A program made the translations under genes and the position numbers. A DNA stretch of 64,000 nucleotides from Gammaproteobacteria bacterium. GTDB taxonomy: Bacteria > Pseudomonadota > Gammaproteobacteria > JBCCGL01. Shown piece by piece: positions 21,540 through 39,542 of the stretch (its first letter is position 1; each line of letters starts with the position of its first letter). Below the pieces are notes generated by a model that was not told where the DNA came from, searched no databases, and was given only the letters and a program-made list of their open reading frames with translations. The DNA is taken from positions 4,111,632 to 4,175,631 of the forward strand of contig OZ255836.1 in the NCBI GenBank assembly GCA_965277715.1, read 5' to 3'.

Positions 21540-22997
21540 ATGACCAAAAAAACACTAAAGAAAGTACTTGTAGTTGATATCGATACGGAGCGAACACGAT
21601 CACTGGCCACCTTGCTGAATTTTCTGGACTACAATGCCCAGGTACTCAGTAGCCCCGCACTCTTGCGCGAATTGACAGACCTGGCGGATTACGGCGCCCT
21701 GTTTCTCTATGAATCAAAGCAGGCACTGGCAATTGCTGCAGAGCTTGCCGAGAAATTGAGCCAGTGCCCGCCGTTGGTGCTGGTCGGTGATCACTTTGCC
21801 AATGAGCCGAGTGAAGGGGCACTGCCACCGGGGTTTATCGCCGCCATGAAAACGGACATCAAATACCCCGAGTTGAGCAATTTACTGCACCGTACTGAAC
21901 TCACCGCAAAACAACACAACAAAGACCTGCCACAATCGCTGGAGTTATTCCGCAGCCTGGTGGGCAACAGCCGCACTATCCGTCGTGTGCGCAAAATGAT
22001 CGAACAGGTTGCCAGTACTGAAGCCACTGTCTTGATTTTGGGTGAATCCGGCACGGGTAAAGAAGTGGTTGCGCGCAACATCCACTACTACTCAACACGC
22101 AGAAACAAACCGTTTGTACCCATCAACTGTGGCGCTATTCCCGGTGATCTGCTGGAAAGCGAACTGTTTGGCCATGAAAAGGGAGCGTTTACCGGCGCCT
22201 TGAGTGCCCGTCAGGGGCGTTTTGAACTGGCTGAAGGTGGCACTATCTTTCTCGATGAAATCGGGGATATGCCGTTGAACATGCAAGTCAAATTGTTACG
22301 GGTGATTCAGGAGCGCTCATTTGAGCGCGTTGGCAGCAACCGCAGCATCAAAACCAACGTGCGCATTATCGCGGCAACCCACCGTGACCTGGATGTATTG
22401 ATCGAGCAGGGACAATTCCGTGAAGATTTGTATTATCGACTCAATGTCTTCCCAATCGAAATGCCGGCAATGCGTGATCGACTCGAAGATCTGCCCTTGC
22501 TGGTCAACGAATTAATCACCCGGCTCGAACACGAAAAAAGTGGCTCGGTACGCCTGACGCCCGCCGCAATCGCCACCTTGTGCAACTACCGCTGGCCGGG
22601 CAATGTACGTGAGCTGGCCAACCTGATTGAACGGTTGGCGATTCTCTTCCCCTACGGTGTGGCGGATGTCAAAGACCTGCCCGCCAAAATAGTGCCAACG
22701 CAAACCAGTGGAGAACTTATCCCGCATGATGCAGTGGCGCTTGAGTATCCCGTCACTATGAGCTCAGGGGGCATGGCTAACCTGGAAATCCTCAGTAGTG
22801 AGCCACGCCTGCCGCGTGAGGGCATTGATCTAAAACAACACCTTACCGATATTGAAGTGAGCTTGATTAAGCAAGCCCTCGACGACACCGATTGGGTTGT
22901 CGCGCACTCGGCAAAGCGCCTGCGTATCCGGCGCACCACCCTGGTGGAAAAAATGCGCAAATACAATATCGTGCGGACTGAAGAGCTGTTGTTATAA
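21540..22997 (+). CDS. fleQ: sigma54-dependent flagellar master regulator (FleQ/FlrA-type enhancer-binding protein)
   Basis: It has an N-terminal FleQ/REC-like domain, an AAA+ sigma54-activation domain ([29 protein letters not shown]) and a C-terminal Fis-type HTH. It sits downstream of fliS-fliT, as fleQ does in Pseudomonas. Confidence 0.8.
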
Positions 22998-23030: not shown

Positions 23031-23406
23031 CTGCGTTGCTCTACCTCCTGTGTCCCTACAGTCGTCGGCAACTGCTCCTGCGTTGCTCTACCTCCTGTGT
23101 CCCTACAGTCGTCGGCAACTGCTCCTGCGTTGCTCTATCTCCTGTGTCCCTACAGTCGTCGGCAACTGCTCCTGCGTTGCTCTATCTCCTGTGTCCCTAC
23201 AGTCGTCGGCAACTGCTCCTGCGTTGCTCTATCTCCTGTGTCCCTACAGTCGTCGGCAACTGCTCCTGCGTTGCTCTATCTCCTGTGTCCCTACAGTCGT
23301 CGGCAACTGCTCCTGCGTTGCTCTATCTCCTGTGTCCCTACAGTCGTCGGCAACTGCTCCTGCGTTGCTCTAGCTCCTGTGTCCCTACAGTCGTCGGTAA
23401 CTGTTT
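23031..23406. repeat. tandem array of a 47-bp direct repeat, about 8 copies (7 near-identical plus 1 degenerate)
   Basis: Unit CTGCGTTGCTCT(A/T)(C/T)CTCCTGTGTCCCTACAGTCGTCGGCAACTGCTC. Copies start at 23031, 23078, 23125, 23172, 23219, 23266, 23313 and 23360. They abut each other with no spacers. All three forward frames are open across the array only because the unit lacks stop codons. Confidence 0.9.
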
Positions 23407-23768: not shown

Positions 23769-24359
23769 TCACTTTTTCATAAATTCAACAAACACTACAG
23801 CCGAGCCGTTGATAAGAATGCTTTCAACGTCGGATAAGGGTATTTCCGTATTTTCGCTATCAAGCCAGCTCGCCTCCCTGAGTAGAAAATGGCCGCTATG
23901 CGGTTCAGTTGGCCATTCTGAAGGCCAGCCGTATATTCTTCTACCATCATCCAGGTGCAATACAACATAGGTTATATTGTCGGCAAAGGCGCTAAACCAC
24001 TCGGACGCATAAGATGTTTCGCGGGTGATAGCGAGTTTTCTCATCAGCGCGTGAAACTTATCATTGTTTGCAAAATAAGCAAACACTAGACCCAATAGCA
24101 ATGATGTTATTAAGGCGCTGAGTAATTCGGTATTGGTATTCCATTCTATCCATCCGGGGTGTAGGCCCGTTACATTGGCCAGTGCTTTAAACAGAAACCC
24201 TAAACCCTGGATAATAATAGTAAATATGAGTGCTTGAACAACCCGTTCAAAATGGGATTGCTTGGGGTAGGAGGTAAAGGCATAAAAAATCCACGCGGTG
24301 ACGAAGCCGGGCAGCAGATATTGCAATAGTGATATAACACCGGTGTTGATTAAATCCAT
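23769..24359 (-). CDS. hypothetical membrane protein with about 3 N-terminal TM helices and a C-terminal soluble domain
   Basis: 196-aa ORF with hydrophobic helices (LLQYLLPGFVTAWIFYAF, VVQALIFTIIIQGLGFLF, LLSALITSLLLGLVFAYF). It lies in an AT-rich context, divergent from the CHAT gene. No recognisable motif. Confidence 0.4.
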   Translation of the reverse strand: MDLINTGVISLLQYLLPGFVTAWIFYAFTSYPKQSHFERVVQALIFTIIIQGLGFLFKALANVTGLHPGWIEWNTNTELLSALITSLLLGLVFAYFANNDKFHALMRKLAITRETSYASEWFSAFADNITYVVLHLDDGRRIYGWPSEWPTEPHSGHFLLREASWLDSENTEIPLSDVESILINGSAVVFVEFMKK

Positions 24360-24492
24360 AATGATACGCCATTAAGTGCCCTTCACTTATTAAAGCAGTT
24401 TTCTTATCCGCAGAAAATACTAAACTCAGTACATAAAATCCAAAATATATACTTCTATAAAAAAATCATAACGCTACACGAGTAATACACCA

Positions 24493-25962
24493 ATGGAACA
24501 GCACAATATTTTGATACTCGGCGCCAGCCCCTGGAATCTTCACCGGGTTAGCCATGATGTAGAAATTCGTAATATACAAAAAGCCATAAAAAAAAGTAGT
24601 GGCGCAGATGCATTCTCTATCGAAACCAACTCCGCCGCGCAGTATCAGGATTTAGGCGAGGCGGTTTTGGCGCAGCAACCGCATATCCTGCATTTCTGTG
24701 GGCATGGCGGGGGTGATGTGGGGTTGGTTTTTGTGGATGAAGATAACAACGCCCAGCTCGCGGATAACACGGCTATGGAAAAACTCATCCGTATGCTGGG
24801 CAATCATGTGCGCTGTGTGTTTCTCAATGCCTGTTACAGTGAGGTGCAGGCAAAGTTACTAATTCCTCATGTCGACTATGTTATTGGCGTGCAGGGCACA
24901 GTGGGTGATGCCGACGCTCAGGCGTTTAGCACGGCATTTTATGAAAAACTGGGGGCTGGTTACCCGCTTACCTATGCTTTTGAGTTGGCCTACAACGACC
25001 ACTACCACGCCGAGCACTGTCGGCCAGTGTTGCTCAGCCGCAGTGAGCACCGCCTCTACCACAGTGATCTCGATACCCTCAATGAAATAAGCCAACGGTT
25101 GCAAACCGTCACCCCTGGTATTGCCCTCCTGGGCCAGGCGGGCCGTATCAGTGCTGCTTTGCCTCCAGCACTGCGAGCACGGATGCAGGGAACCTTTGGC
25201 CCTGAACGGGTATTAACACTTAGCCCCGTCAGTGACGACAAACAACAAGGTGCATTTTTTGCCCATCTCGCCGAGCAGGCGCAGTCTGATCAGGTCGACT
25301 TTAGCGGGTTAGCAACCGTCTTACAGCACCGGGTGGAAGACGGTAGCCTGCGCTGCCTGTTGCTAGGCCATTTGCAGCGCGGTAGCGCTGAAGAGTCCCG
25401 GCAACTGGCCGAGTTGTTGCGCAATTTATGTGAAGGGGGGCGGTTAAAGGTGGTGATTTACGGTGAGCGAAGACTGCGCGATTTAATGGTGCTTAACGGT
25501 GCGCTATCACCGCTGAATATGTTGGATTCACTCTACCTTGCCGAGTTGGGTGTAGAGGATGTTCTCAAGCTTGAGCCAGAGTTGAAGAGAGAAGAAGCCG
25601 AGGATTTGTTGGCGCTGTCTGGCGGGCACCCACGGCTGTTGCGTGAAGCGCTGTTTTGCTATCGCCAACAACCCAATCTGAATAAGGTAGCCGAGCAGTT
25701 GCAAACTGCGGTCGATGATATTGTCGATCAATGTCTTTGTGATTTTCGGGGGCAGGAGGATAGTATGGTGTTGTTAGCGGATTGCTTGCGTGAAGAACGG
25801 GCGGGTTACCGAGCAGACTTGATAGGTGATGAAGTGTTGGCGGCTTTATATTGGCATAACTTGCTGCGGCAGCAGGGGCATCAGTTGTACTGGCGTTGTA
25901 GTTTATTGCGTGAGACGGTGGAAGCAGTAGCGGCCAGCCTGGCCCGGCGGGCGGGGGTGTGA
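24493..25962 (+). CDS. CHAT-domain (caspase-like, clan CD) peptidase with a C-terminal alpha-helical domain of unknown function
   Basis: The N-terminal ~130 aa carry the CHAT/caspase His-Gly and Cys catalytic dyad in the canonical context (PHILHFCGHGGGD ... VRCVFLNACYSE). The remaining ~330 aa are Leu/Arg-rich and helical. There is no signal peptide. The stop at 25960-62 lies 1 nt before the next gene's GTG start. Confidence 0.7.
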   Translation: MEQHNILILGASPWNLHRVSHDVEIRNIQKAIKKSSGADAFSIETNSAAQYQDLGEAVLAQQPHILHFCGHGGGDVGLVFVDEDNNAQLADNTAMEKLIRMLGNHVRCVFLNACYSEVQAKLLIPHVDYVIGVQGTVGDADAQAFSTAFYEKLGAGYPLTYAFELAYNDHYHAEHCRPVLLSRSEHRLYHSDLDTLNEISQRLQTVTPGIALLGQAGRISAALPPALRARMQGTFGPERVLTLSPVSDDKQQGAFFAHLAEQAQSDQVDFSGLATVLQHRVEDGSLRCLLLGHLQRGSAEESRQLAELLRNLCEGGRLKVVIYGERRLRDLMVLNGALSPLNMLDSLYLAELGVEDVLKLEPELKREEAEDLLALSGGHPRLLREALFCYRQQPNLNKVAEQLQTAVDDIVDQCLCDFRGQEDSMVLLADCLREERAGYRADLIGDEVLAALYWHNLLRQQGHQLYWRCSLLRETVEAVAASLARRAGV

Positions 25963-25963
25963 T

Positions 25964-28900
25964 GTGCAGTTGAGACTTAGCGTGGCGTTACGCTACGGCT
26001 TACTATTGGGTTTGTGTGTGGGGTGGCTGCCGTTGGGGGTAGTGGCGGATGCTGTGCGACCGGCTTTGGTGCCTGCGGGTGAGCAGTTGGCTAGTGGTGA
26101 AGGGGCGTTGGATAGTTTGGCTCGGCGTTTGAATACACGCTTGGGCACTGTCCATCACGCGGCCTTCAGCCCGCAGGGAGATCGCATCGTTACGGCATCG
26201 AGTGATAACACTGCGCGGCTGTGGAATGCAGACAATGGCGAACTGATTGTGGTGCTTGAGGGGCATACGGATTGGGTTAATCACGCGGCTTTCAGCCCGC
26301 AGGGAGATCGAATCGTTACGGCATCGGATGATAATACTGCGCGGTTATGGAACGCAGACAATGGCGAACTGATTGCGGTGCTTGAGGGGCATACGGGCAG
26401 AGTTTATCACGCGGCCTTCAGCCCGCAGGGAGATCGCATCGTTACGGCATCGGGTGATGATACTGCGCGGCTGTGGAACGCAGACGATGGTGAACTGATC
26501 GATGTGCTTAAGGGGCATACGGATTGGGTTAATCACGCGGCTTTCAGTCCACAGGGAGATCGAATCGTTACGGCATCGGATGATAATACTGCGCGGTTAT
26601 GGAACGCAGACAATGGCGAACTGATTGCGGTGCTTGAGGGGCATACGGGCAGAGTTTATCACGCGGCCTTCAGCCCGCAGGGAGATCGCATCGTTACGGC
26701 ATCGGGTGATGATACTGCGCGGCTGTGGAACGCAGACGATGGTGAACTGATCGATGTGCTTAAGGGGCATACGGATTGGGTTAATCACGCGGCTTTCAGT
26801 CCACAGGGAGATCGAATCGTTACGGCATCGGATGATAATACTGCGCGGTTATGGAACGCAGACAATGGCGAACTGATTGCGGTGCTTGAGGGGCATACGG
26901 GCAGAGTTTATCACGCGGCCTTCAGCCCGCAGGGAGATCGCATCGTTACGGCATCGGGTGATGATACTGCGCGGCTGTGGAACGCAGACGATGGTGAACT
27001 GATCGATGTGCTTAAGGGGCATACGGATTGGGTTAATCACGCGGCTTTCAGTCCACAGGGAGATCGAATCGTTACGGCATCGGATGATAATACTGCGCGG
27101 TTATGGAACGCAGACAATGGCGAACTGATTGCGGTGCTTGAGGGGCATACGGGCAGAGTTTATCACGCGGCCTTCAGCCCGCAGGGAGATCGCATCGTTA
27201 CGGCGTCGAGAGATAACACTGCGCGGCTGTGGAACGCGGGCGATGGCGAACTGATCGCGGTGCTTGAGGGGCATACGGGCAGAGTTTATCACGCGGCTTT
27301 CAGCCCGCAGGGAGATCGCATCGTTACGGCATCGAGAGATAACACTGCGCGGCTGTGGAATGCAGACAATGGCGAACTGATTGTGGTGCTTGAGGGGCAT
27401 ACGAGTTGGGTTTATCACGCGGCCTTCAGCCCGCAGGGAGATCGCATCGTTACGGCATCGAGAGATAACACTGCGCGGCTGTGGAATGCAGACAATGGCG
27501 AACTGATTGTGGTGCTTGAGGGGCATAGGAATAGGTTTTATCACGCGGCCTTCAGCCCGCAGGGAGATCGCATCGTTACGGTATCGGGTGATGATACTGC
27601 GCGGCTGTGGAATGCAGACGATGGTGAACTGATCGATGTGCTTAAGGGGCATACGGATTGGGTTAATCACGCGGCTTTCAGTCCACAGGGAGATCGAATC
27701 GTTACGGCATCGGGAGATAACACTGCGCGGCTGTGGAATGCAGACAATGGCGAACTGATTGTGGTGCTTGAGGGGCATAGGAATAGGGTTTCTCACGCGG
27801 CCTTCAGCCCGCAGGGAGATCGCATCGTTACGGCATCGGGTGATGATACTGCGCGGCTGTGGAATGCAGACAATGGCGAACTGATTGCGGTGCTTGAGGG
27901 GCATAGGAATAGGGTTTCTCACGCGGCCTTCAGCCCGCAGGGAGATCGTATCGTTACGGCATCTAGGGGTAAGACTGTGCGGCTGTGGAGCGCAGACGAT
28001 GGCGAACTGATCGCGGTGTTTGAGGGGCATACGGATCGGGTTACTCACGCAGCCTTCAGCCCGCAGGGTAATCGCATTGTCACCGCCTCATTCGATGGCA
28101 GTATAAGACTATGGGACACAGATACAGCTAAACCGCTACGGCTTATGGTGGCCACCAGCAACGGCCAATGGCTAAACTGCCAGGCGAACGGCCATTGCTT
28201 ACGCCACGACGATGGCACATTGTTTTGGCCGCCTCTACCTCCCCAGGCCACAGGCGGTAAACTGAGCCTGGAAAATCTGCCCGAGGCGACAATCGACACC
28301 TGTATGTCGCTGCCTTGCGAGCCACGCGACTTTGTTGTCGGGATTCGCAATACCGGCACCGCGCCACTCTATTGGCTACAAGTGGTCTCGGCAGAAAGCG
28401 GCCCTGTCTCACTGTCATTACCCCCACCGCCGTTACCGCCATTGCACCCCGATGATCATGTTGAGCTAAGCATACGCCTGGCCAGCGTAGCACCCACACA
28501 GCAACCCCAGCGCCAAAACACCAGTATAAAATTGGCTATTCGCCACGCCCATGGCGAATTACCAATAGACCTGCCAGTAACCGTGCGCACCCCAGAGATT
28601 ACTCTGCTGGAAGCCAGCCTGACAGAAAACCGCGAAACCATCGCAGTGCAGGTGAGTAACCACGGCGGGGTTTCACTATCCCAGGCGGTTGCAGAGGCCG
28701 CCATCAATGGCCAGGCGATACCCGGTAGCCTTAACCTTCCAGTGCTTCCGGGCAATATGTCGAAACCACAACAATTGGCTTTTACGGCGCCCGCAGATTT
28801 TAACTACCCGGACGACACTGAGTTCACTTTGCAGTTGCGCAACGCCAACTACCCCCATTATCAGTGGACACTCAAACACCCGCTCACCCTGCCCTGGCAA

Positions 28901-30586
28901 CTCTATACCTTGCTGGCAGCACTGATTCTGGTGCTTGGCGGGCTGGCCTGGTTTGTCGGTGTGCGCTGGCATCCACTGGTGCGGCTGGCGGTTAATCAAG
29001 GCCCCACCGCGCTGGCACTGCCCCAGCTGGGCCAGGCGCGCCGCTGGCTGCAACGCGCCCGCCTGTGGCGGGATACCGTGCAGGCGCAAGGGCTGGCAGC
29101 GCGCTGGCAAAGCGCCGAGGCGTTTTTGGCCTGCCCTGACCCGGTGCAGCAAATCGAACAACTGGCCGGGCGTTTACAGGCCGAGGTGTTGCCCGCGAAT
29201 GAGGCTACCCCCACCTGGCTGGCCACCTTGCGTCTTAACGAAGGCTTTATCCTGCGCTTACCACAGTGCACGGTGGCGCTGCCCGGCGCCGATCATTCTA
29301 TCGACCAGATCACCACTCAGCTACGCCGTTGCGAAGGTGTATGCCTGCTAATCACCACAGACCCGGATCAACAGGCCGCGCTGCGCGCCGACCGCCAGGC
29401 CACCTGGGTGATACCGGACAACCAGGCTTTGGTGCGCCTATGGCTGGCAGCGGCGGATAAGGTTAACGATCAACTGGCCTCTATTATCGCCGAGCAGGTC
29501 GATACCCGTAGCCTTTCGCCCTGGCGCACTGGTCACGGTATGGAGGATATGACGATGTTTTTTGGCCGCGACCAGTTACTGCGCGATATCCTCGAACGAC
29601 CACCGCGTAACTACCTGCTGGTTGGGGCGCGGCAGCTGGGTAAAACCAGTCTGCTGCAAAAACTGCAACATCTCTGCGATCAGCGCGATACATTGCGTGG
29701 CTTTAAAATCTCGCTGGGCTCCGGCCATTTTGCCATCGATTTGCAACGCATCGCTGGGCAGTTGGCGTTGGCGCGCAACGCCTCTTTGCCAGACATTCTC
29801 ACTGCGTTGGCGCACCCGCCCGCCGGGATCCATCACTGGTTGTTAGTCGACGAGGCCGACGAGCTGGCGGGCAACCACACCCCGGAAAATGCAGCGGTTT
29901 TAGATCAAATGCGCAACCTGAGCGCCGAGGGCCGCTGTCATTTTATCCTCGCCGGGTTTTGGGGCCTGTACCGTGAGGCGATACTGGAGTACCAATCAAA
30001 ACTGAAAAACTTTGGTGACCTGCTGCTGTTGGATGCTCTGGAAGACAAGGCCAGCCGGGCGCTACTCACCCGGCCTATGCACGCCTTGCAGATTCACTAC
30101 CAGGATGACACCCTGGTAACGCGGATTCTGCACGAGACCGGCGGGCGCACTAATTTGCTGGCTATTGTCGCCGATGACCTGGTGCGCCGACTTGGCAATC
30201 AACGCCGGGTGATTACCGATGAAGATATCAGCGAAGTGCTAAACGATGCGGTGTTTCAGGATCGCCTGCTCGACTGGAAAACACTATCAGGGAATATACT
30301 AGATCAAATACTGGTATACGCTAGTATCGACCTCAACCCACTAGAGCAGGGTTTTACCGAGGCTGAATTATGGCAACGGTTGGATGAATTGGGAGACGAA
30401 GTATCCGATGATGCCGTACAAAATTCGCTGATTCGTTTACGGCTGGGATTTATCATCAAACGCGTTGGTGGACGTTACTACTATCGCGTGCCCGTGCAAG
30501 TACAGCAAATCCTCGACAGCGAACCGGAGCGTGCCTTGCGTAGATTGCTCAATTCTTTAGTCGGTGATATATCGAAACAATGTTGA
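25964..30586 (+). CDS. giant multidomain protein: signal peptide or anchor, then about 16 WD40 repeats, beta-rich linker domains, a single TM helix, then a cytoplasmic STAND/AAA_16-like P-loop NTPase with a C-terminal winged-helix
   Basis: N-terminal hydrophobic leader (LRYGLLLGLCVGWLPLGVVA). 16 units of a 42-aa WD40-like blade (HAAFSPQGDRIVTASxDNTARLWNADxGELIAVLEGHTxxV). A TM helix (LYTLLAALILVLGGLAWFVGVRW, nt ~28897-28970). Then FFGRDQLLRDILERPPRNYLLVGARQLGKTSLL, which is the FxGR-x(n)-GxxxxGKT/S pattern typical of STAND/AAA_16 ATPases. Walker B HHWLLVDEADEL. C-terminal wH-like RLRLGFIIKRVGGRYYYRVP. GTG start coupled to the CHAT gene. Confidence 0.75.
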   Translation: MQLRLSVALRYGLLLGLCVGWLPLGVVADAVRPALVPAGEQLASGEGALDSLARRLNTRLGTVHHAAFSPQGDRIVTASSDNTARLWNADNGELIVVLEGHTDWVNHAAFSPQGDRIVTASDDNTARLWNADNGELIAVLEGHTGRVYHAAFSPQGDRIVTASGDDTARLWNADDGELIDVLKGHTDWVNHAAFSPQGDRIVTASDDNTARLWNADNGELIAVLEGHTGRVYHAAFSPQGDRIVTASGDDTARLWNADDGELIDVLKGHTDWVNHAAFSPQGDRIVTASDDNTARLWNADNGELIAVLEGHTGRVYHAAFSPQGDRIVTASGDDTARLWNADDGELIDVLKGHTDWVNHAAFSPQGDRIVTASDDNTARLWNADNGELIAVLEGHTGRVYHAAFSPQGDRIVTASRDNTARLWNAGDGELIAVLEGHTGRVYHAAFSPQGDRIVTASRDNTARLWNADNGELIVVLEGHTSWVYHAAFSPQGDRIVTASRDNTARLWNADNGELIVVLEGHRNRFYHAAFSPQGDRIVTVSGDDTARLWNADDGELIDVLKGHTDWVNHAAFSPQGDRIVTASGDNTARLWNADNGELIVVLEGHRNRVSHAAFSPQGDRIVTASGDDTARLWNADNGELIAVLEGHRNRVSHAAFSPQGDRIVTASRGKTVRLWSADDGELIAVFEGHTDRVTHAAFSPQGNRIVTASFDGSIRLWDTDTAKPLRLMVATSNGQWLNCQANGHCLRHDDGTLFWPPLPPQATGGKLSLENLPEATIDTCMSLPCEPRDFVVGIRNTGTAPLYWLQVVSAESGPVSLSLPPPPLPPLHPDDHVELSIRLASVAPTQQPQRQNTSIKLAIRHAHGELPIDLPVTVRTPEITLLEASLTENRETIAVQVSNHGGVSLSQAVAEAAINGQAIPGSLNLPVLPGNMSKPQQLAFTAPADFNYPDDTEFTLQLRNANYPHYQWTLKHPLTLPWQLYTLLAALILVLGGLAWFVGVRWHPLVRLAVNQGPTALALPQLGQARRWLQRARLWRDTVQAQGLAARWQSAEAFLACPDPVQQIEQLAGRLQAEVLPANEATPTWLATLRLNEGFILRLPQCTVALPGADHSIDQITTQLRRCEGVCLLITTDPDQQAALRADRQATWVIPDNQALVRLWLAAADKVNDQLASIIAEQVDTRSLSPWRTGHGMEDMTMFFGRDQLLRDILERPPRNYLLVGARQLGKTSLLQKLQHLCDQRDTLRGFKISLGSGHFAIDLQRIAGQLALARNASLPDILTALAHPPAGIHHWLLVDEADELAGNHTPENAAVLDQMRNLSAEGRCHFILAGFWGLYREAILEYQSKLKNFGDLLLLDALEDKASRALLTRPMHALQIHYQDDTLVTRILHETGGRTNLLAIVADDLVRRLGNQRRVITDEDISEVLNDAVFQDRLLDWKTLSGNILDQILVYASIDLNPLEQGFTEAELWQRLDELGDEVSDDAVQNSLIRLRLGFIIKRVGGRYYYRVPVQVQQILDSEPERALRRLLNSLVGDISKQC
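26140..28120 (+). repeat. intragenic tandem DNA repeats (126-bp WD40 unit; 252-bp super-unit) with near-100% nucleotide identity
   Basis: At least three perfect 252-bp copies lie between about 26280 and 27100. The minus-strand ORFs 26345-26536, 26597-26788 and 26849-27040 have identical translations at exact 252-bp spacing. About 10 further, slightly diverged 126-bp units follow. Confidence 0.9.
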
Positions 30587-30708
30587 GGAGCGCATAACGG
30601 TAGACTGTAAGCGCCCTTAAATCAGCCTCTATTCCAAGGTAATGTCCAAAACGACATTCCAAGGTAGCAAGGCCTCTATCTTTTCAAGGAAAAAAAAAGA
30701 AAAAAAAA

Positions 30709-30806
30709 GGGGTCAAGGCAGTTATTTCCTATATTTCTTGCTGGAAATCACTGTTTTTATCCGTATTAGTCGTTGTATGGTGAATAATAAGCCTGACCCC
30801 CTTGCT
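30709..30806. mobile_element. MITE-like ~95-bp repeat element, copy 1 (short GGGGTCA terminal inverted repeats)
   Basis: AAAAAGGGGTCAAGGCAGTTATTTCCTATATTTCTTGCTGGAAA(T/C)CACTGTTTTTATCCGTATTAGTCGTTGTATGGTGAATAATAAGCCTGACCCCCTTGCTTTT. It recurs almost identically at 34784 and 37611. Its ends are inverted (GGGGTCAAG ... CCTGACCCC). Confidence 0.55.
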
Positions 30807-31187
30807 TTTAGGCTACGCAAAATTAGCCACAGCAGAAATACAATACCAGCGAGCTGGATGGTTATACCGAGAACAGCATTCATAAGGGGTTTCTCCAGAT
30901 TACGCCGGGGGAACCTCCTTCCCTGCCGGGAAGAAAAACCCCGGCAGGGTGGTTAAAACAAAATAAAAACAAAAAATAATGGGCTGCTTCTTTTGAGAGA
31001 CCAGCTATCTCTTAGGGCATACCTATCGGCAACGCCCTGACACTGACCGGGGTCAGCAATAAGTAGAAACCAAGATAGCGTGTCCTGCTAGAACGGGCAG
31101 TGAAGAAGATGGCAGTTTTTAACACCTATCGCACCGCCACAAAAATACACTGGTACTACCCTGATATTTTTATCTGGTGGCAATGTT

Positions 31188-31772
31188 ATGGCATCTAAAA
31201 CCCCCTATTCTCGTCCAACCTTTGAACAATCTTTTACGCTGCACAGCCTTCAGGCCCAGCGGGTGGTGCAACGGGTGCTGAGGCGTACCGTACACGCCTT
31301 ATACGGCATTGAAGTAATTTTACGGATTATTGGGGATGAAAAAGCCATTGACGAAGTGGACGGCATTATCCGGGACGCGGTAACTCATGCCGCCAGCGAA
31401 CTGGAGCAGGAACAAAGCCGACTGAATCTTTTAATGGAAGAAAACGGCATTGATGAGACGCCAAACTATACCCACCCGTACACCTTTACGGCCAAAATCA
31501 GTTCGCCGCAAATCGGTCAGTTTATAGGACTGATACGCAAACTGGATGCCGTGATGATTGCCCGTGATACGCTTTGGTTAACCGGGGTTATCAGCAATCA
31601 ACAGAGGGCAGATGGGAATTTTGATGGGCAGCAAAAACTTACCCTGCTGGCACGGCATATTATTGATATTGAAACGCGAGCAAGGCAATCGGCGAATAGC
31701 CAAGGTAAGCAGGAAGAAGTGGAGGCGGTGGTGCCGGTGATGGAGGAAGTACTGGAAGCTGAAGAAGATTGA
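31188..31772 (+). CDS. hypothetical protein (island-encoded)
   Basis: 194-aa ORF in the AT-rich island. It has an acidic C-terminus (EEVEAVVPVMEEVLEAEED). No motif I can name with confidence. Confidence 0.35.
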   Translation: MASKTPYSRPTFEQSFTLHSLQAQRVVQRVLRRTVHALYGIEVILRIIGDEKAIDEVDGIIRDAVTHAASELEQEQSRLNLLMEENGIDETPNYTHPYTFTAKISSPQIGQFIGLIRKLDAVMIARDTLWLTGVISNQQRADGNFDGQQKLTLLARHIIDIETRARQSANSQGKQEEVEAVVPVMEEVLEAEED

Positions 31773-31937
31773 GAAGATTAAATAACCACCAACTAAAGTC
31801 GGTAAGTCCAATATTGGCTAAGCCGCCATCAGACTTCACATGTCCAATTAACTATCCAGTGGTTGACCTGCATTACCGGAAGGGACTCTCATCTATTGGA
31901 GATTTTGACTTGATTGCATACCCATTTATTTGATCGA

Positions 31938-33122
31938 TTATTCAGCGGTACAGCTAATCGTTTTGTTAGTCCACGGAGCACCATTCCAAGAATCTTCGAC
32001 TCCTGGAGAAACTCGGCTTAATAGTTCATCAGATACTTCGCCGTCTCCACCACATTGCTCAAAACTAGTCTGCACACCATGTACGAATAGGCTTGCAGAA
32101 TCTCCACAAAGCACTGGCTTATCAATTGATGTCAGCACTGAGCTAGAGAGAAGTACTAACCTGTACACAGGGTTCAGATAGGCATCGAAACCTGGAATGA
32201 TATACTGTCCAGCTGGCAATTGAGCAAAGCGTCGAAAACCGGTAAGGGTTTGAAACGCTATCATGTCAGAAGCAGCCCGCTGTGCAAATGTTTCTAATAC
32301 ACCGTCATCCTCCCAATCTGTAATTGGGTTTGAATGAAGCGCTTCGACTTGACGGGCAGCACATCTGTCCGCATTGATTTCATTCGGGTTTGGATTGGAT
32401 GCACAAAACAAATCGTTCGAGGTTTGGAGAGCCAGGATGTGTTGAAACAAGCCAGACGTTTCCATACGCGACTTTGTGCTTACGGGGCACTTTTCGTTGT
32501 TAATGTGATACGTCTCATGACCCACCAGTGAGGCCAGATTGAACGCCATTATGCGATTTTGAATAACTGCTATTCTGCGTAGATTAGCTGAAACATTGTT
32601 CTGCTCAATGCCTTGAAATTGATTGTCAATGAACGTGCGAAGTGGCTCTTGCATCGCCGCAACGTTATCTGCATGAACGGTCTCGTCTGCATATCCGAAC
32701 GCCAGTTTGACAGGACGGTCAAACGCAATTCGAAATGACTCATAGTCTGGGTAAGCGCCTTGAACAAATTGTATTGCATACCAGCTTGCTACCATGTTCA
32801 TTCGCTGGAAGGCTGATTGGCGACAGAACATCTTCCCAGGTATTGCTGCGCAAACTGTATCAGGCATGCTGTCATTGCAAACTGCTCTTCGGATTTTCAA
32901 ATCCAGTTTTTCACTACCACCTTTTAGAATCGAAGTTAATTGAATCATACTTATGTGTTGCCAATTCGACCCGCCAAATGTTTCCTCGTGACAGATTGAA
33001 AGTTCAATCTCTGCATTTACCCGTTGAACTGACAATATTTGCACAATCGCAACAAAAAGCAGAATTGCTCTTGAGCTAATCATTTCAGTGCACCAATTAA
33101 TGTGTCGAGTACCCCCTCGCAA
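31938..33122 (-). CDS. hypothetical secreted protein with an HExxH zinc-metallopeptidase-like motif
   Basis: 394 aa. N-terminal signal peptide (ILLFVAIVQILSVQRVNA). HETYH motif (LASLVGHETYHINNEKC). Low GC. Confidence 0.35.
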   Translation of the reverse strand: MRGGTRHINWCTEMISSRAILLFVAIVQILSVQRVNAEIELSICHEETFGGSNWQHISMIQLTSILKGGSEKLDLKIRRAVCNDSMPDTVCAAIPGKMFCRQSAFQRMNMVASWYAIQFVQGAYPDYESFRIAFDRPVKLAFGYADETVHADNVAAMQEPLRTFIDNQFQGIEQNNVSANLRRIAVIQNRIMAFNLASLVGHETYHINNEKCPVSTKSRMETSGLFQHILALQTSNDLFCASNPNPNEINADRCAARQVEALHSNPITDWEDDGVLETFAQRAASDMIAFQTLTGFRRFAQLPAGQYIIPGFDAYLNPVYRLVLLSSSVLTSIDKPVLCGDSASLFVHGVQTSFEQCGGDGEVSDELLSRVSPGVEDSWNGAPWTNKTISCTAE

Positions 33123-33451
33123 TTACCAACATGTATCTGGACGGCGCTTGTCAGCCCCTGTAAGTCTTGATTTGGCAATTGGCTTAAGCTTTTTGTTCGT
33201 TTTAAGCTGGTCAGACAGTTTTCAACCGGGCCGACTTGTAAGCTTGCCAATTTGCTTACTCTTTCTCCACCTGGAGGAAATGCAACAGCAAGAGTCACCC
33301 CAGCAGTTAAAAACGCCGATAGAATTGTCCATACATAGGTTCGCTTCTTCCACTTGTCCTCAAGGGCCAGCTTCAGTTTCTCCAACTCAAATTTGGCATT
33401 TTCTAAGTCAGGTTGATTGTCCATCAGCTTAAGGTTCTTAGGTCTGACCAC
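33080..33451 (-). CDS. hypothetical small membrane-anchored protein
   Basis: 123 aa with an N-terminal coiled/charged region and then one TM helix (VWTILSAFLTAGVTLAVAF). It overlaps the neighbouring genes in an operon-like arrangement. Confidence 0.3.
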   Translation of the reverse strand: MVRPKNLKLMDNQPDLENAKFELEKLKLALEDKWKKRTYVWTILSAFLTAGVTLAVAFPPGGERVSKLASLQVGPVENCLTSLKRTKSLSQLPNQDLQGLTSAVQIHVGNCEGVLDTLIGALK

Positions 33452-33983
33452 ATTTTAGTGCCGCATCCAGGTTATCCTGCAAACCTGCTATATCCCAGGT
33501 TTCCAGCAAATCTCTAATAAGAGTAGGATCAAGCTCTGTGCCATCTTTTTTTAGGTAATACACCGACGTACGAGCACGTTCACGATTGATATCCACCTTA
33601 TAAGTTAATTCAAAAACTCCTTCGATATTATCACCGGTTGCGTGAAAAAAAATACTGCCAAGGGTTTTCTCGCGCCTCGGCAAAACCAAACCCTTCAAAT
33701 TCGTCCAGGCCACAAAAACGCTTTCTATTTTGTCTGTACAGTCAGCCAACTTTGGGATAAAACGGTTTTGAAAATAGGATGTCTGATCAAAGCCACCGCC
33801 GATACCTGGATCTTCAGGATCAGGTGCTGCGTCCAGTGATGAGACCGCCCCGATACTTGTCAACGCAGTTTTTGAGGTATTATCAGCAAGTGCAAGACCT
33901 ACATTGGCAAGTAAGCTGATAGTCAACACGACCAGAAGACAAGGAATGTTCAACATAGATATTTTTTCAATTCGTTTGAACAA
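33438..33983 (-). CDS. hypothetical secreted protein
   Basis: 181 aa with a signal peptide (MLNIPCLLVVLTISLLANVGLALA). First gene of a three-gene minus-strand cluster. Confidence 0.35.
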   Translation of the reverse strand: MFKRIEKISMLNIPCLLVVLTISLLANVGLALADNTSKTALTSIGAVSSLDAAPDPEDPGIGGGFDQTSYFQNRFIPKLADCTDKIESVFVAWTNLKGLVLPRREKTLGSIFFHATGDNIEGVFELTYKVDINRERARTSVYYLKKDGTELDPTLIRDLLETWDIAGLQDNLDAALKCGQT

Positions 33984-34369
33984 CTAATTATAACTTAACT
34001 ATTTTGTTTCTGTAGGCCCAAATTATTAACATGTGTTGTAAAAACCAAAGTTCGGTAGACGGTAAGTATACAGTTGTATTTAACCCTAATTCTTAGATAG
34101 GAACGTTTAAAGGTTATTGGGAAATGCTTTAATGGCCTGTGACGATTTGGTTTGCTATATTGTGTATAAATATACTTTTAGCTTTGCTATACCATCAAAA
34201 TTAAATTGTTTACTCAACAATATGGTTCCCGATGTGCTCGTACTTCAGGTGTGGCTGACCAAGCATGGAAAAATAAATATGCAAAGAGTTTACAGCAACA
34301 AGTGATTGTTTTCATTCAATTACGAGGCGAGCCATATGTTAATCATTTGCGTTTTGAAGGCTGAAAGTT

Positions 34370-35105
34370 GTGACTGATTTCTTGTTTAAGCACAGCACCA
34401 CGGTTGGCCAGCCCGGCTATTTTTTGCATGGTTTGTTATTAGACGGAAACCCCACATTCAGTGAAGGCGTGTACAGGCTTAACCATTGGGCCGTGCGCTT
34501 AGGCCGCGATGCGCATTCAGATGAAGCCCGCATGGCTTCTTTGCACGAAATGTATCATGCGACATTGAACGACAGTACTGCATACGGAACGTTAATGCAT
34601 GTGGTGGGATTATTTTGCCGCACCTATCCAGAAGAGAACCAATGGCCGAATCTTTTGCAGGCGCTTATCGACTCAGCGTTGCGCTGCCATGAAACCTATG
34701 CAACCTACGCGTCTGTATTTGTTGTTGGTAAAGGCTCGCCGAACAGAGCTGTGCTCGAACAGTATCCTGAAAGTCATTAAAAGGGGTCAAGACAGTTATT
34801 TCCTATATTTCTTGCTGGAAACCACTGTTTTTATCCGTATTAGTCGTTGTATGGTGAATAATAAGCCTGACCCCCTTGCTTTTCAAATTATGCGGGCGCA
34901 TGCGAATCTCACTGGTGCAGATGCTGATGGTTGGCTGACATCTCGTCAGGTTGCTGGATATCATCATGACGTATTTGCAACATATGGATTACCTGCCAGG
35001 ACTTTTGGTGGAACGCCAATAACAAGCGCTTTGTGGGAGTCAAACATTAATTTTGGAGGTTTTTTGGGCTACCGATATTGGTGTGATGGATGTGCTTCTC
35101 AATGA
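34370..35105 (+). pseudogene. hypothetical HExxH-motif gene disrupted by a MITE insertion
   Basis: The ORF 34370-34780 (contains LHEMYHATLND) stops exactly at the MITE border. The reading frame resumes after the element in a different frame (34884-35105: QIMRAHANLTGADADGW...). A ~97-bp insertion accounts for the +1 frame change. Confidence 0.45.
34784..34878. mobile_element. MITE-like ~95-bp repeat element, copy 2 (inserted in a coding sequence)
   Basis: Near-identical to copies 1 and 3 (GGGGTCAAGACAGTTATTTCC ... AAGCCTGACCCCCTTGC). Confidence 0.55.
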
Positions 35106-35806
35106 ATGGGCGTAGTTTACTGATTAGTTGTTTTTTTGTATTGCTTACAGCTATTTCGGTTGGCACGTATGCTTTTGACGTAGAAGAAATGAAACTGACA
35201 CTTGGTGAGCACCAATTAAGTATTCCAAAAAGCAATATTATTGATCCCAATGTACCGTTCTGGCTGCGTTTAATTCCGGGTTTAGCTCCCAGCACTGGAG
35301 AGATTCTGCTCTTGATAGATGCAGAAGATATTGCTAATCAGGTCGAGGGGTATCAAGCGTATGATGGCGAGTTAAAAAACAATATACATTTGCGTATATC
35401 AGTGCTTGATGTGAACGCGTTAAATCAAATTTTAGACCCTCAAATGCATGTCTATAGCGATGCTTGGTATGGGCGGGGATTATTGGAAGGTCGTACTATA
35501 GAGCTGCATGAGAAGTCTAGATTTTATAAGCTGTACAGAGGAGATGACACATTTTGGACAGCTGTAAAAATTTCACCTGATGCTTCTCAGCCTATACCTG
35601 ACGATCCTTTTGCTTTTTGGGTTGCAAGTTGTCATAAAGGAGAAGCTCCATTGACGAAATCAGGCTTTATAACAAGTTGTCTCACCAAGATGGTATATGA
35701 CAATCTTCTTTTGGATTTTAGTTTAAATGGAATAAATTTAGGTGTAGTAGATGGTGTGAAGACTATGCTGTCTCGCCAGCTTTTATTATGGAAAAATCAG
35801 AAATAA
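35090..35806 (+). CDS. hypothetical secreted protein
   Basis: 238-aa ORF with an N-terminal signal sequence (LLISCFFVLLTAISVGTYA). AT-rich codon usage. No known motif. Confidence 0.35.
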   Translation: MCFSMNGRSLLISCFFVLLTAISVGTYAFDVEEMKLTLGEHQLSIPKSNIIDPNVPFWLRLIPGLAPSTGEILLLIDAEDIANQVEGYQAYDGELKNNIHLRISVLDVNALNQILDPQMHVYSDAWYGRGLLEGRTIELHEKSRFYKLYRGDDTFWTAVKISPDASQPIPDDPFAFWVASCHKGEAPLTKSGFITSCLTKMVYDNLLLDFSLNGINLGVVDGVKTMLSRQLLLWKNQK

Positions 35807-36042
35807 AAATAAACATTTAGTTGAATGTCAAAACTGAGTTCAAAATCCCTAGCGGCTTGCTAGGGCTTTTTTGCTTTTACTCTTCGCTAGTCAACACCAA
35901 ACACCCGTCCATCACTCTGACCTTCACTGGCGAATCAATCTCAAATCCCGCTTTGATTAACCAATGGCCTTTGAGGTGAATCTCGCCAATGGGTGTGCGC
36001 TGTCGGCAGTTCTGGCTGAAATAAAAGGAAAAGGGGTCAGGC

Positions 36043-37611
36043 TAGAATGGCACTTCCTTAAGCTCTAAGTACATGAAAAATATGGAAGTACTTTCATTGT
36101 AAATGACCTATTTCTGTTTTTTGGGATGGCCATATTTTTTAACAACACTTCTGGCCACGTCCCTTGGCTGCATCAATAAAGGATACGGTTTGGGTCTTCG
36201 TTTAACCACTCTTGGTTCAATACGCCCCGGTCGATTACCCACACAGTTTTCTGCAATCAACGCACATAGCGCCAACACCTTATCACTACCCAGAGGGCTA
36301 CCGCCTTTCTGATAACGATACGTTACCCAAATTTGTAACGTATGCTTAAAACTTATCTGTCGAGGCAGTATGTCCACTAGTAAGGCAGATTGCGCCATTA
36401 ATAAGCGAATAAGGTTGTAAGCTAATATGTGTACCCACATTTCCTTCTCAACCATTTCTGGCGTCTTACAACGGAAAGTGTGCATCTTCATTGTCGTTTT
36501 TATATGGCGTAAATCAAGTTCGACATGCCAGCGTTCTTTGTAGAGCTGTTTAAGCGCCTCTTTAGACGCCGATTTAACTGATAACAACGTTGTCACCAAC
36601 AGTTTTTTACCCACTTTCAGTTCACGTATAACCACTTCATCAGCAGCCGCTTCATAGGCTTCTTCGCTCATCCACTCTGGTCTCTTCTTGGGCTTTGTAT
36701 AACAAATCAGATGATCCTTCGATCCAAGCCTTTTGCCTTCTCGAAAATCTGTGGATTTACGCCGCGCACCATGCGGCTCAAATACACCGTCTACTCCTTG
36801 CTCTATAAGGTTTGCTAGAAAAAAATAACCCGCAAAATAGGCATCACCCACCACAATATCACCCGGTTTAAGCGCATTTTGTATTTTTCTCAATAACGTT
36901 TGCTCATCCGCTCCCTTACCTTTAAAAGGACCCATTGCCGCATCGAGAACACCACCACTGGCTAAACAAATAATTCCTACCCAGCGACAAAGAGGAAAAC
37001 CGATCCCCACTTGCTGGCCTGACTGTTGCGGATAAACTACCTGATTTTCAGGCGTATCGGGCATTGTCACAGTGGTGCCGTCAACCAATTTAACTGAACG
37101 CCCTTGCCAGTGCCAGTGACTGGCCGCTTCATTCGCCACACACTCGCCTGTACAACGGGCAAGCCCTGAGACGAGGGGGGTTGGCAGCCTTTGTCGCGCT
37201 TTACAATAACTCCCTGTATACGTATTACTCACTGATAAACCTTCACTTAATCGCTGTACAGCGAGTGTGTTGACAGCTTGTTGGCAGGACTGATCTGCAC
37301 TCATTGTTTGGTATAAAAACAGCGATAAGGTATCTAGAGGAGGATAGCGACGCGCTCGAAAATCCGGTTGTAATTCTTCCAGTTTCGTAAGTAACTGAGA
37401 GGATGTCAGCAAGTGATAAAAACTCAATGCATCCGAGGATTGAGCTCGGCTTTTGATGCGACGTTGAAGAATGTTGACTTTTACATTACTCTGCATGATG
37501 GCTGGTTCCTGTGGGATAAAGGGTATTTGTGTTGGCAACAAATAACCTACCATAGAACCAGCTTTTTTTGTAATTACTTCAAATACTTACAGCTTAAGGA
37601 AGTGCCATTCG
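36043..37611 (-). mobile_element. IS4-family insertion sequence (~1.57 kb) with ~20-bp terminal inverted repeats
   Basis: Left end GAATGGCACTTCCTTAAGCTCT (36043-) and right end AGCTTAAGGAAGTGCCATTC (-37611) are reverse complements of each other. The element encloses a single transposase gene. Confidence 0.7.
36108..37553 (-). CDS. IS4-family DDE transposase
   Basis: 481 aa colinear with IS4-type transposases (…DGTTVTMPDTPEN…, …LLRKIQNALKPGDIVVGDAYFAGY…, …YKERWHVELDLRHIKTTMKMH…LIRLLM…). Confidence 0.85.
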   Translation of the reverse strand: MVGYLLPTQIPFIPQEPAIMQSNVKVNILQRRIKSRAQSSDALSFYHLLTSSQLLTKLEELQPDFRARRYPPLDTLSLFLYQTMSADQSCQQAVNTLAVQRLSEGLSVSNTYTGSYCKARQRLPTPLVSGLARCTGECVANEAASHWHWQGRSVKLVDGTTVTMPDTPENQVVYPQQSGQQVGIGFPLCRWVGIICLASGGVLDAAMGPFKGKGADEQTLLRKIQNALKPGDIVVGDAYFAGYFFLANLIEQGVDGVFEPHGARRKSTDFREGKRLGSKDHLICYTKPKKRPEWMSEEAYEAAADEVVIRELKVGKKLLVTTLLSVKSASKEALKQLYKERWHVELDLRHIKTTMKMHTFRCKTPEMVEKEMWVHILAYNLIRLLMAQSALLVDILPRQISFKHTLQIWVTYRYQKGGSPLGSDKVLALCALIAENCVGNRPGRIEPRVVKRRPKPYPLLMQPRDVARSVVKKYGHPKKQK

Positions 37612-37706
37612 GGTCAAGGCAGTTATTTCCTATATTTCTTGCTGGAAACCACTGTTTTTATCCGTATTAGTCGTTGTATGGTGAATAATAAGCCTGACCC
37701 TCTTGC
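37611..37706. mobile_element. MITE-like ~95-bp repeat element, copy 3, abutting the IS4 right end
   Basis: GGGTCAAGGCAGTTATTTCCTATATTTCTTGCTGGAAACCACTG ... AAGCCTGACCCTCTTGC. It is followed by the short CCTCCCTTG x3 repeat. Confidence 0.55.
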
Positions 37707-37782
37707 CTCCCTTGCCTCCCTTGCTTTCTAATAGTAATCTCCAAAGTGCACACGGTGATAATCGGACTACACGCAGAGGAGG

Positions 37783-38310
37783 TTGTTTTGTTTATTGGGG
37801 AGGGCCGAGATGTTGAATTTATGTAGAACACTTCAATCTTTATTTCTATTTTTTGGGGCAAGTTATATATCCGTGTGTGATGCTGAACTGAACAAAAAAT
37901 ATGAAAAAGTCATCGATAAAAATATTCTTGGGCAAGAAATAGCCACTCTCTACGATAAATTTGGTTACCTTAAACTTGAAGTTGACAATGAATATGCCGA
38001 TCTAGATAGGTTAGAAAGATATTGGTTGGCTATAGACTCACATTATGAGTTTCTAACCTTGCGTACAATAAATGATCTTGTTGTAGAAGTAATCATTCGA
38101 AACCCGGACATAAAGACTGAGCGCGGAATAACAGTTGGAAAAAAACTGGATGAGTTTATCAAGTCTTATCCAGATGCAAATAAGCTTAACACGTACACAA
38201 GTGGTATAAAGAGGCAGTTAATCGCTTATTGTGTTGAGAGTGAGAAACTAGAGGTAGAGTTTTACGAAGGTAAGATATTCGTTTTGAAAATTCTCGATGA
38301 ATGTCATTGA
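37783..38310 (+). CDS. hypothetical secreted protein
   Basis: 175-aa ORF with a signal-like N-terminus (LQSLFLFFGASYISVCDA). AT-rich. Confidence 0.3.
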   Translation: MFCLLGRAEMLNLCRTLQSLFLFFGASYISVCDAELNKKYEKVIDKNILGQEIATLYDKFGYLKLEVDNEYADLDRLERYWLAIDSHYEFLTLRTINDLVVEVIIRNPDIKTERGITVGKKLDEFIKSYPDANKLNTYTSGIKRQLIAYCVESEKLEVEFYEGKIFVLKILDECH

Positions 38311-38864: not shown

Positions 38865-38894
38865 CCTAATCGTGTTGTAATTAACAGTTTTTGA

Positions 38895-39356: not shown

Positions 39357-39542
39357 ATTGAACGCTATAGATTAAATCACGTAAAATCGAAATAAAAGAG
39401 CTCGAATATATTTAATTTTTTAAAAAATATTTTCAGTAGAAATTTGTGTTACCACATTATCGTTATAACGCAGTGATGCTACTATGATCATAATATGGTT
39501 GAAAAACGCTGGTTTGTACAACAGTCGTTTGGTAAGTAACAT

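Follow-up and report, generated by a model that had tools for sequence, protein, structure and literature searches.

The window analyzed here, 64,000 nucleotides (nt) from a gammaproteobacterium (contig OZ255836.1 of assembly GCA_965277715.1; positions are counted from the first letter of the window), encodes a protein of 1540 amino acids (aa) in which an array of WD40 blades is followed by a transmembrane (TM) helix and an nSTAND1 NTPase. A gene for a CHAT protein lies directly upstream. We favor, at a probability of roughly 0.6, the reading that the array is the diversifying, highly internally conserved WD40 sensor of an NLR-like system (NLR, NOD-like receptor), and that a two-blade unit, termed A+B, was recently amplified within an older array. 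Unequal recombination, or slippage during replication, at an offset of two units would have amplified the A+B unit very recently. The array as a whole would evolve through gain, loss and exchange of repeats, i.e., by concerted evolution, while amino-acid diversity would be retained at ligand-contacting positions of the top face. The features on which this reading is built are:

25964..30586, plus strand: WD40-TM-nSTAND1 gene, 1540 aa, GTG start (open reading frame list, Pfam)
26135..28150, plus strand: WD40 array, 16 blades of 42 aa (126 bp) (Tandem Repeats Finder, unit tables, Pfam WD40)
26300..27204, plus strand: perfectly 252-bp-periodic tract, 905 bp, 3.59 copies of the two-blade A+B unit (lag-252 identity)

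Tandem Repeats Finder recognized one array (26154..28077; period 126, 15.3 copies, 87% matches, 0 indels, score 2847), and Pfam WD40 matched 16 stretches of the protein (E 1.1e-172). The entire array stays in frame within the 1540-aa open reading frame (ORF), and blade register was set to start at the GH dipeptide. The conserved repeat core occurs 16 times, in every case within this plus-strand array, and nowhere else in the window. When the array was cut into 126-bp units, two unit types were seen to alternate. The amplified unit is made up of blade A (GHTDWVNH...SDDN...AVLE) and blade B (GHTGRVYH...SGDD...DVLK). No difference separates the units at 26406, 26658 and 26910, nor those at 26532, 26784 and 27036, and the unit at 26280 differs from this second set at 2 nt. 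Comparison of the sequence with itself at a lag of 252 revealed 653 consecutive bases without mismatch (26300..26952), and the nearest mismatches on the 5' side were located at 26296 and 26299. A perfect self-match of this length cannot be explained by chance. Because the lag-252 identity is perfect over 26300..26952, the tract extends from 26300 to 27204. The original prediction had claimed perfect 252-bp tandem copies inside the WD40 region, at 26270-27110 and over about 800 bp. The copies are real, but both boundaries of the tract lie further to the right than was thought, the start by about 30 bp and the end by about 95 bp. The variant motifs listed there (WVNH, RVYH and RVSH; SDDN, SGDD and SRDN) all recur in our unit tables. 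Antisense ORFs within the array (e.g., 27101..28048, 315 aa) were rejected as genes and are by-products of the repeat.

Blades 2-15 share a mean pairwise identity of 85% at the aa level (0.852, minimum 0.714) and of 89% at the nt level, and blade 16 is divergent from the others. With a mean of 0.852 these blades belong to the highly repetitive (HR) or high internal conservation (HIC) class, for which an internal pairwise identity of at least 0.7 (Hu et al., 2017) or a Psim of at least 0.7 (Ament-Velasquez and Saupe, 2026) has been used. The likeness extends to the DNA, i.e., to low synonymous divergence (0.89 nt identity; A+B copies without differences over 653 lag comparisons), which points to recent duplication or homogenization and not just to purifying selection. 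The expansion had been called very recent before, and this holds: the A+B copies show 0 differences among themselves, whereas 19 of 126 nt distinguish blade A from blade B, with 8 nonsynonymous and 7 synonymous codons. Distinct blades are separated by a pairwise proportion of synonymous differences (pS) of about 0.18-0.21, and the array is therefore not uniformly young. It is an older, diversified array on which a very recent, local amplification of two blades is superimposed.

The period of 252 bp follows from the offset at which identity is found, since the longest uninterrupted identity in the A+B region amounts to at most 20 nt at a one-unit offset vs. 653 nt at a two-unit offset. Given the ABAB pattern, homology-dependent misalignment should strongly favor a step of 252 bp. 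Outside this tract, the unit at 27647 is a mosaic, with an A-type 5' half and a 3' half like that of units 27269 and 27395; at 27521 the 3' half of the unit is B-type. A four-gamete test found all four gametes in 76 of 496 biallelic site pairs, corresponding to a Hudson-Kaplan minimum of 6 exchanges (Rm at least 6). Mosaics and four-gamete test together demonstrate that the blades exchange sequence with one another, in line with the unequal exchange proposed in the original prediction.

The original prediction had overlooked that the variable codons of the blades are ligand-binding hotspots, and also that the array is the predicted periplasmic sensor of a STAND NTPase that spans the membrane and is paired with a CHAT protease. 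Replacements cluster at codons 3, 4, 5, 7, 23 and 25, and secondarily at codons 34, 39 and 42. The pairwise proportion of nonsynonymous differences (pN) is 0.32 at codons 3, 4, 5, 7, 23 and 25, vs. 0.019 in the other 33 codons, at a background pS of 0.18. The replacements at the hotspots are radical (W/R, N/Y/S, D/G/R), and blade variability in six relatives is likewise highest at positions 23, 7, 5 and 4. Wu et al. (2012) defined the top-face hotspots R1-2, R1 and D-1 from 29 complexes (PMC3419727), and codons 5, 7 and 23 of our blades correspond to these three. In the NWD proteins of Podospora, codons 7, 9, 25 and 27 were reported to be positively selected beside the purified codons 8 and 26 (Paoletti et al.; PMC1805685). 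Codons 5, 7, 23 and 25 are arranged around V6 and D24 with the same spacing (+2, +16, +2). Since pN at these codons exceeds the background pS and the same positions recur elsewhere, positive selection at the hypervariable codons is likely.

An AlphaFold model of blades 1-8, for which an alignment of shifted eight-blade windows from the same protein was used, yielded a closed 8-bladed propeller (predicted local distance difference test, pLDDT, 96.7; predicted template modeling score, pTM, 0.92). Its strands cover unit positions 6-11, 17-22, 26-31 and 37-42, which puts codons 3-5 in the D-A loop and codons 23-25 in the B-C turn, with codon 7 where strand A begins. In WD40 propellers it is the D-A and B-C loops that make up the top face. 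Both the contrast in pN and the location in or near these two loops confine the hypervariable positions to the predicted binding face. The model superimposes on eight-bladed ODA16 (5MZH) with a TM-score of 0.94 and a root mean square deviation of 1.1 Å, on human ODA16 with 0.93 and on the designed Tako8 with 0.89, vs. only 0.75 for seven-bladed WRAP-T. Among solved proteins, the highly repetitive WRAP propeller of Nostoc (2YMU, E 5.3e-154) is closest in sequence. A single-sequence AlphaFold run on all 16 blades was unusable (pLDDT 41) and was left out of the conclusions.

The remaining parts of the protein and its partner are as follows:

24493..25962, plus strand: CHAT partner gene, 489 aa (Pfam CHAT, E 5.2e-9, 36.4 bits, cut-off 24)
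25988..26053, plus strand: N-terminal hydrophobic segment, aa 9-30, LRYGLLLGLCVGWLPLGVVADA (Kyte-Doolittle scan)
28151..28888, plus strand: beta-rich, predicted extracytoplasmic linker, aa 730-975 (family alignment consensus)
28889..28963, plus strand: second TM helix, aa 976-1000 (hydropathy scan, this protein and nearly all relatives)
29540..30181, plus strand: nSTAND1 NTPase module (Pfam PF20703, E 3.3e-9, 37.3 bits, cut-off 27.1)
29624..29647, plus strand: Walker A motif GARQLGKT, intact
29840..29860, plus strand: Walker B motif LLVDEAD, intact
29933..29956, plus strand: sensor-1-like motif RCHFILAG

Preceded by R4 and R10, the hydrophobic segment at aa 9-30 represents a signal peptide or else a first TM anchor, and the relatives have the same feature. 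The linker behind the array gave no Pfam family at E of 1 or below (aa 730-975), and contains a WLxCxxxGxC(L/W)RxDDG motif with two cysteines (28169..28198) that is conserved across the family. The second TM helix is followed by R/H/R residues, fitting the positive-inside rule. In what would be a single-pass-like membrane protein, the WD40 array is predicted to be extracytoplasmic (periplasmic) and the NTPase cytoplasmic, because the array always sits between two hydrophobic segments and because of the charge distribution and the conserved cysteines. The nSTAND1 region also matches AAA_22 (E 8.7e-6), and the family alignment shows invariant columns in this module. With its motifs intact the NTPase is active-looking. 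A STAND NTPase is thus contained within the repeat protein itself, as in HIC NLRs, but the canonical one-chain order of effector, NTPase and repeats is not followed: the repeats are N-terminal, the NTPase is C-terminal and CHAT is encoded by a separate upstream gene. The PADLOC model 'HEAT-ARM_XIII' (PDLC02919) matched the WD40 region (25964..28200) with E 5.7e-46. This candidate-defense model evidently contains WD40 repeats, and the match is uninformative on system membership.

The GTG start of the repeat gene lies 1 nt past the stop codon of the CHAT gene. The N-terminal caspase-like protease domain of the CHAT protein carries the motifs HFCGHG (aa 67-72) and NACYS (aa 112-116), and PADLOC assigned the protein to the generic 'chat' (8.5e-8) and to the 'SAVED_CHAT' models. 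The protein has no hydrophobic segment and is therefore predicted to be cytoplasmic. Its C-terminal domain of about 290 aa, a conserved adaptor domain, matched no Pfam family except, weakly, AAA_35. Between the CHAT protein and the TIR protein found upstream of one relative (P0005) this C-terminal domain alone is shared, with 29% identity (E 2e-22). The domain may be a degenerate STAND/AAA-like module, an assignment that we regard as tentative. Searches for promoter-like and terminator-like sites around the operon gave no excess over shuffled expectation. A gene for a DUF6338 membrane protein (23769..24359, minus strand; Pfam E 2.3e-15) is located divergently upstream of the CHAT gene.

Relatives of the gene pair were collected by a profile scan with one genome per species, which returned 182 relatives, and 80 loci were fetched. 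The C-terminal 808 aa have only seven similar proteins in a collection of 5.8 billion proteins, the best at 35% identity. The architecture in full, from the hydrophobic N-terminus through the WD40 blades and the beta-rich region to the TM helix and nSTAND1, was found in Thiomargarita, Chromatiaceae, Lamprocystis, Thiosymbion, Thiothrix and Thiohalocapsa, and also in Parabeggiatoa, Desulfococcaceae, Syntrophobacteraceae, Aminicenantes and Inquilinaceae. The WD40 array of the relatives invariably sits between two hydrophobic segments. Blade counts in the full-architecture relatives are 2, 3, 4, 5, 6, 11, 12, 14 and 15, compared with 16 here. This between-species range supports, indirectly, that blade number may vary between strains, as the original prediction had proposed. 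Pseudomonas, Stenotrophomonas, Lysobacter, Undibacterium, Acidovorax and Delftia have a shorter form of about 720 aa, in which the same two hydrophobic segments are separated by only about 130 aa. Tandem arrays at the DNA level were also detected in several relatives, e.g., in Lamprocystis purpurea (126 bp x 13.7, 80% matches) and Thiothrix (120 bp x 7.2, 86%).

In 66 of 86 loci, the same-strand gene directly upstream codes for a protein with the adaptor domain. Its N-terminal domain varies and was identified as HTH_31 (13), TIR (12), CHAT (3), alpha/beta hydrolase (1) or SEFIR (1). Effectors are thus swapped among the relatives beside a conserved partner domain, and an NTPase linked to swappable effectors is what marks nSTAND1 conflict systems.

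Further observations concern individual relatives. In L. purpurea DSM 4197 (locus L009, 7907..12484) about 15 highly similar blades of the orthologous-type gene are interrupted by an in-frame TAG in the penultimate blade. The stop falls on the hypervariable R1-2 codon (GHAD*VSAV; TGG in other blades) and severs WD40 from TM-nSTAND1, reflecting either a pseudogene or a sequencing error. The protein of a Thiosymbion ectosymbiont (L010, 9107..12511) has GNILGNILGNIL micro-repeats inserted inside its WD40 blades, so that repeat instability is present on two levels in this domain. Many relatives (L001, L003, L011, L012, L017, L019 and others) possess 2-5 blades, too few for a lone propeller to close. 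It is known that isolated WD40 fragments with 1-6 blades assemble as 6-9-bladed homo-oligomeric propellers (PMC6805158), and by analogy the propeller of the 2-5-blade relatives may exist solely in the oligomer.

The topology, the ligand, the signaling steps and the immune role are inferred. A periplasmic ligand would bind the propeller face of the WD40 sensor. The signal would cross the membrane and drive NTP-dependent oligomerization of the cytoplasmic STAND module. This module would then recruit and activate the co-transcribed CHAT protease (TIR elsewhere) via the conserved C-terminal adaptor, thereby setting off an NLR-like conflict or immunity response. The protein pair would therewith represent an NLR-type switch that is split across the membrane and across two genes. 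A more specific proposal, which we rate as less probable, is that of an "outside-in" bacterial NLR. Here, a membrane-spanning STAND receptor would use a double WD40 propeller, rapidly reshuffled, to read ligands in the periplasm, e.g., injected toxins, predator factors or the entry proteins of phages. The receptor would pass the signal across the inner membrane to the nSTAND1 switch and from there to a separate CHAT/TIR executioner via a degenerate STAND-like adaptor, in a sensor/helper-like manner, and 2-5-blade relatives would form a propeller only on oligomerization.

Several points weigh against the favored reading, and some of them are shared with the alternatives discussed below. The 16 blades are compatible with two 8-bladed propellers, in a model for which AlphaFold was given exactly eight blades. 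The topology is a prediction from hydropathy, charge distribution and conserved cysteines. When the adaptor was aligned with the nSTAND1 module by hhalign, the match (Walker B to GxP part) was weak, with a probability of 38% and E 3.3e-4. At the hypervariable codons the within-codon pN/pS is 0.64 and hence below 1, a value that comes from one allele with recombinant units, and relaxed constraint could also account for the variable codons. A second allele was sought with the non-repeat C-terminal part in proteins, species genomes and metagenomes, and with a degenerate DNA pattern for HAAFSPQGDRIVTA in metagenomes, and none was found. Exact look-ups of the CHAT, WD40-STAND and DUF6338 proteins gave no match. 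The 1540-aa product is absent from a collection of 15 billion proteins in which the neighboring CHAT protein is present (P0128, without a position record). PADLOC recognized no defense model in the STAND protein and gave only a 12-bit P-loop match (E 0.019). Finally, the partner carries an HTH domain instead of a killing domain in 13 of 66 relatives. These HTH partners, together with the missing PADLOC model for the STAND protein, imply that the family may be a broader signaling device.

The alternative that survives best, although we consider it unlikely, is that of a neutral young repeat. The propeller would simply be recently amplified, its variable sites would be the least-constrained surface residues and changes in repeat number would be non-adaptive. 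About 20% of prokaryotic WD40 proteins are highly self-identical, which has been ascribed to young duplications (PMC5587647), and new propellers are amplified continuously in all lineages (PMC9218822). The ratio of 0.64 from a single allele also fits this. However, a pS of 0.18 between blades vs. 0 among the A+B copies shows that the array is not uniformly young, and the hotspot replacements are radical, with a pN above the background pS. Moreover, the same four positions are the most variable ones in six independent relatives and are under selection in Podospora, and a STAND NTPase with CHAT/TIR partners provides the context of a recognition system.

It is less likely still that the assembly misleads us, such that the assembler expanded or collapsed the perfect A+B copies of a genuine WD40 array, and with them the count of 16 blades. 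The warning of an assembly risk in the original prediction was legitimate. Reads that fall short of the array's length do not resolve a perfectly periodic tract of 905 bp, assemblies of HIC WD40 NLR genes from Illumina data are unreliable in Podospora (PMC12222747), and Pereira and Lupas voice the same doubt for their own two-blade-unit protein (PMC9218822). The absence of the 1540-aa product from the protein collection points in the same direction; in the public record, the gene may have been left without annotation or marked as a pseudogene. Against an artifact, the CHAT protein is identical to a record (P0128) that comes from a single contig of 4,294,796 bp, typical of a closed long-read or hybrid assembly. 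This suggests, but does not prove, a closed and probably long-read genome behind that record. In addition, the ORF is in frame across 4.6 kb, a second near-perfect array (47 bp x 7.9, 373 bp, 99%) was resolved 2.7 kb upstream, and the edges of the tract are clean mosaic junctions with no contig end.

At a similarly low level we rate the possibility that the pair does not serve immunity. It could be a transmembrane signaling or regulatory pair, or a "eukaryotic-like" repeat protein with which a sponge symbiont binds a host or envelope component. Sponge symbionts are enriched in eukaryotic-like repeat proteins, WD40 proteins included. The distal end of the window (58670..64000) was recovered at 99.46% nt identity in two sponge metagenomes (Logan DRR248315; ENA ERZ922808/DRR066339), and the source organism or a conspecific strain therefore lives in sponges. 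The two contigs (L087, 1..5331; L088, 1..2601) cover just this end, so that absence of the locus there is indistinguishable from low coverage. The HTH_31 domain that replaces the effector in some partners, and the lack of a PADLOC model for the STAND protein, would also suit a role outside immunity. On the other side, free-living sulfur bacteria and metagenome-assembled genomes from sediment or groundwater account for most of the WD40-bearing relatives. CHAT or TIR partners are found here and in the closest architectural relatives, and a periplasmic domain anchored in the inner membrane would not be exposed to a host cell. A contingency (phase-variation) locus, in which changes in repeat number toggle the gene on and off, is suggested by the long perfect tandem repeat within a surface-facing domain, but it is highly improbable, as gain or loss of units alters the number of blades and never the frame or expression. 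Phase variation by frameshift was rejected because 126 and 252 are both divisible by three.

The reading as a diversifying NLR-like sensor can be compared with four known cases. HIC WD40 NLRs with hypervariable contact residues are established (PMC1805685, PMC12222747, PMC13449251), as are highly repetitive prokaryotic WD40 proteins (PMC5587647) and the continuous amplification of blades (PMC9218822). HIC repeats in ATPase-containing NLR-like proteins have been reported across all domains of life, and outside fungi they occur with nSTAND ATPases, CHAT/TIR domains and TM segments (PMC13449251). Because such architectures outside fungi have been described there, the core phenomenon is already known.

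The closest parallel in design are the NWD/HNWD proteins of Podospora anserina (het-e, het-d, het-r), which are NACHT NLRs. They share the 42-aa (126-bp) WD40 unit, which is 80-100% identical in Podospora, and concerted evolution via unequal crossing-over and gene conversion (PMC1805685, PMC12222747). In both, the hypervariable codons flank the conserved strand-A residue and the Asp (7, 9, 25 and 27 there; 5, 7, 23 and 25 here), the repeats are joined to a STAND NTPase, and the arrays are hard to assemble from short reads (PMC12222747, PMC13449251). The Podospora proteins are cytosolic, with effector, NACHT and WD40 in one chain, whereas in our protein the WD40 part is N-terminal and predicted to be extracytoplasmic, the NTPase is nSTAND1 and not NACHT, a TM helix lies in between and the effector is a separate protein. 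Furthermore, no paralogous arrays for inter-locus exchange are visible in the window, and repeat-induced point mutation does not apply.

Among bacterial proteins, WRAP of Nostoc punctiforme (Npun_R6612; 2YMU) resembles our array in belonging to the HR class (PMC5587647; 0.85 here); it has 14 near-identical blades in which mainly R1 is variable. WRAP arose by single-blade amplification with zero synonymous differences and forms two 7-bladed propellers. Our array is older and diversified (pS 0.18), carries a superimposed two-blade amplification, counts 16 blades and stands in a membrane/STAND context. The 47-blade WD40 protein of Pereira and Lupas has consecutive two-blade units that are 100% identical at the protein and nucleotide level, with single blades about 81% identical, and resembles our tract in this. 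There, the whole domain was amplified globally from a two-bladed fragment (PMC9218822), whereas here amplification is local, with 3.6 copies, and the other blades of the 16-blade array are distinct.

The NTPase clade (Pfam) owes its definition to predicted counter-invader systems in which the effector classes are the same (Kaur, Burroughs, Iyer and Aravind, 2020/2021; PMC8195603; PMC10907252). The resemblance to these systems and to bacterial antiviral STAND/NLR-like proteins extends to caspase-like/CHAT and TIR effectors and to the logic of a variable sensor, an NTP-dependent switch and an effector. The nSTAND1 systems described so far have C-terminal, mostly cytoplasmic sensors (lectin/FGE, TPR-like) and small effector-associated (EAD) or Death-like adaptors. 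In contrast, our protein has an N-terminal, predicted extracytoplasmic sensor, and the linking domain of about 290 aa is weakly similar to a STAND module.

Three aspects of the locus are less ordinary. The amplified unit comprises two blades, which Pereira and Lupas had seen just once (PMC9218822). The sensor is N-terminal and predicted to be periplasmic, placed before the TM helix and the NTPase. The CHAT/TIR effector is provided in trans through a large conserved partner domain. Experimentally characterized Avs and bNACHT proteins are cytosolic.

The window is chromosomal and carries a flagellar cluster as well as genes for PBP2, Mfd, HisZ, PurA and a pyrophosphatase. No other record exceeds 85% identity to PurA, and those that name a taxon reach 64-67% at best (Ectothiorhodospira, Ectothiorhodospiraceae and metagenome-assembled genomes of Thiotrichaceae, Legionellales and Gammaproteobacteria). 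Rfam detected no RNA family in the window. The GC content changes along the region 24000..40000, from 55-62% in the CHAT/WD40-STAND pair to 38-47% in the next 10 kb (30-40 kb), compared with 51% for the whole window. Seven ORFs downstream of the pair, none of them matched by Pfam or PADLOC, lie in the low-GC part together with a DDE_Tnp_1 transposase (36108..37553, minus strand). The region 24000..40000 has the appearance of a composite island that was inserted next to the flagellar cluster. On the other side of the pair, the 47-bp array (23031..23403) consists of units arranged head to tail in the intergenic region between a sigma-54 activator gene (21540..22997) and the divergent DUF6338 gene; ORFs that cross it are by-products of the repeat. 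A CRISPR-like nature of this array was rejected, as its copies are head to tail and spacers are lacking.

In practical terms, a tract of this kind carries a risk of mis-assembly and of loss from annotation. Podospora makes new non-self recognition specificities via near-identical WD40 blades with hypervariable contact residues, and recent surveys find the same design in bacteria, yet it has barely been examined there. The locus described here is a clean bacterial example, with a zero-divergence amplification of two blades atop an older, recombining array and with its diversity at the positions known from the fungal proteins. If the topology and the immune role hold true, NLR-type sensing would reach the extracytoplasmic compartment, and the family would offer an experimentally tractable system for how the shuffling of repeats yields specificity.

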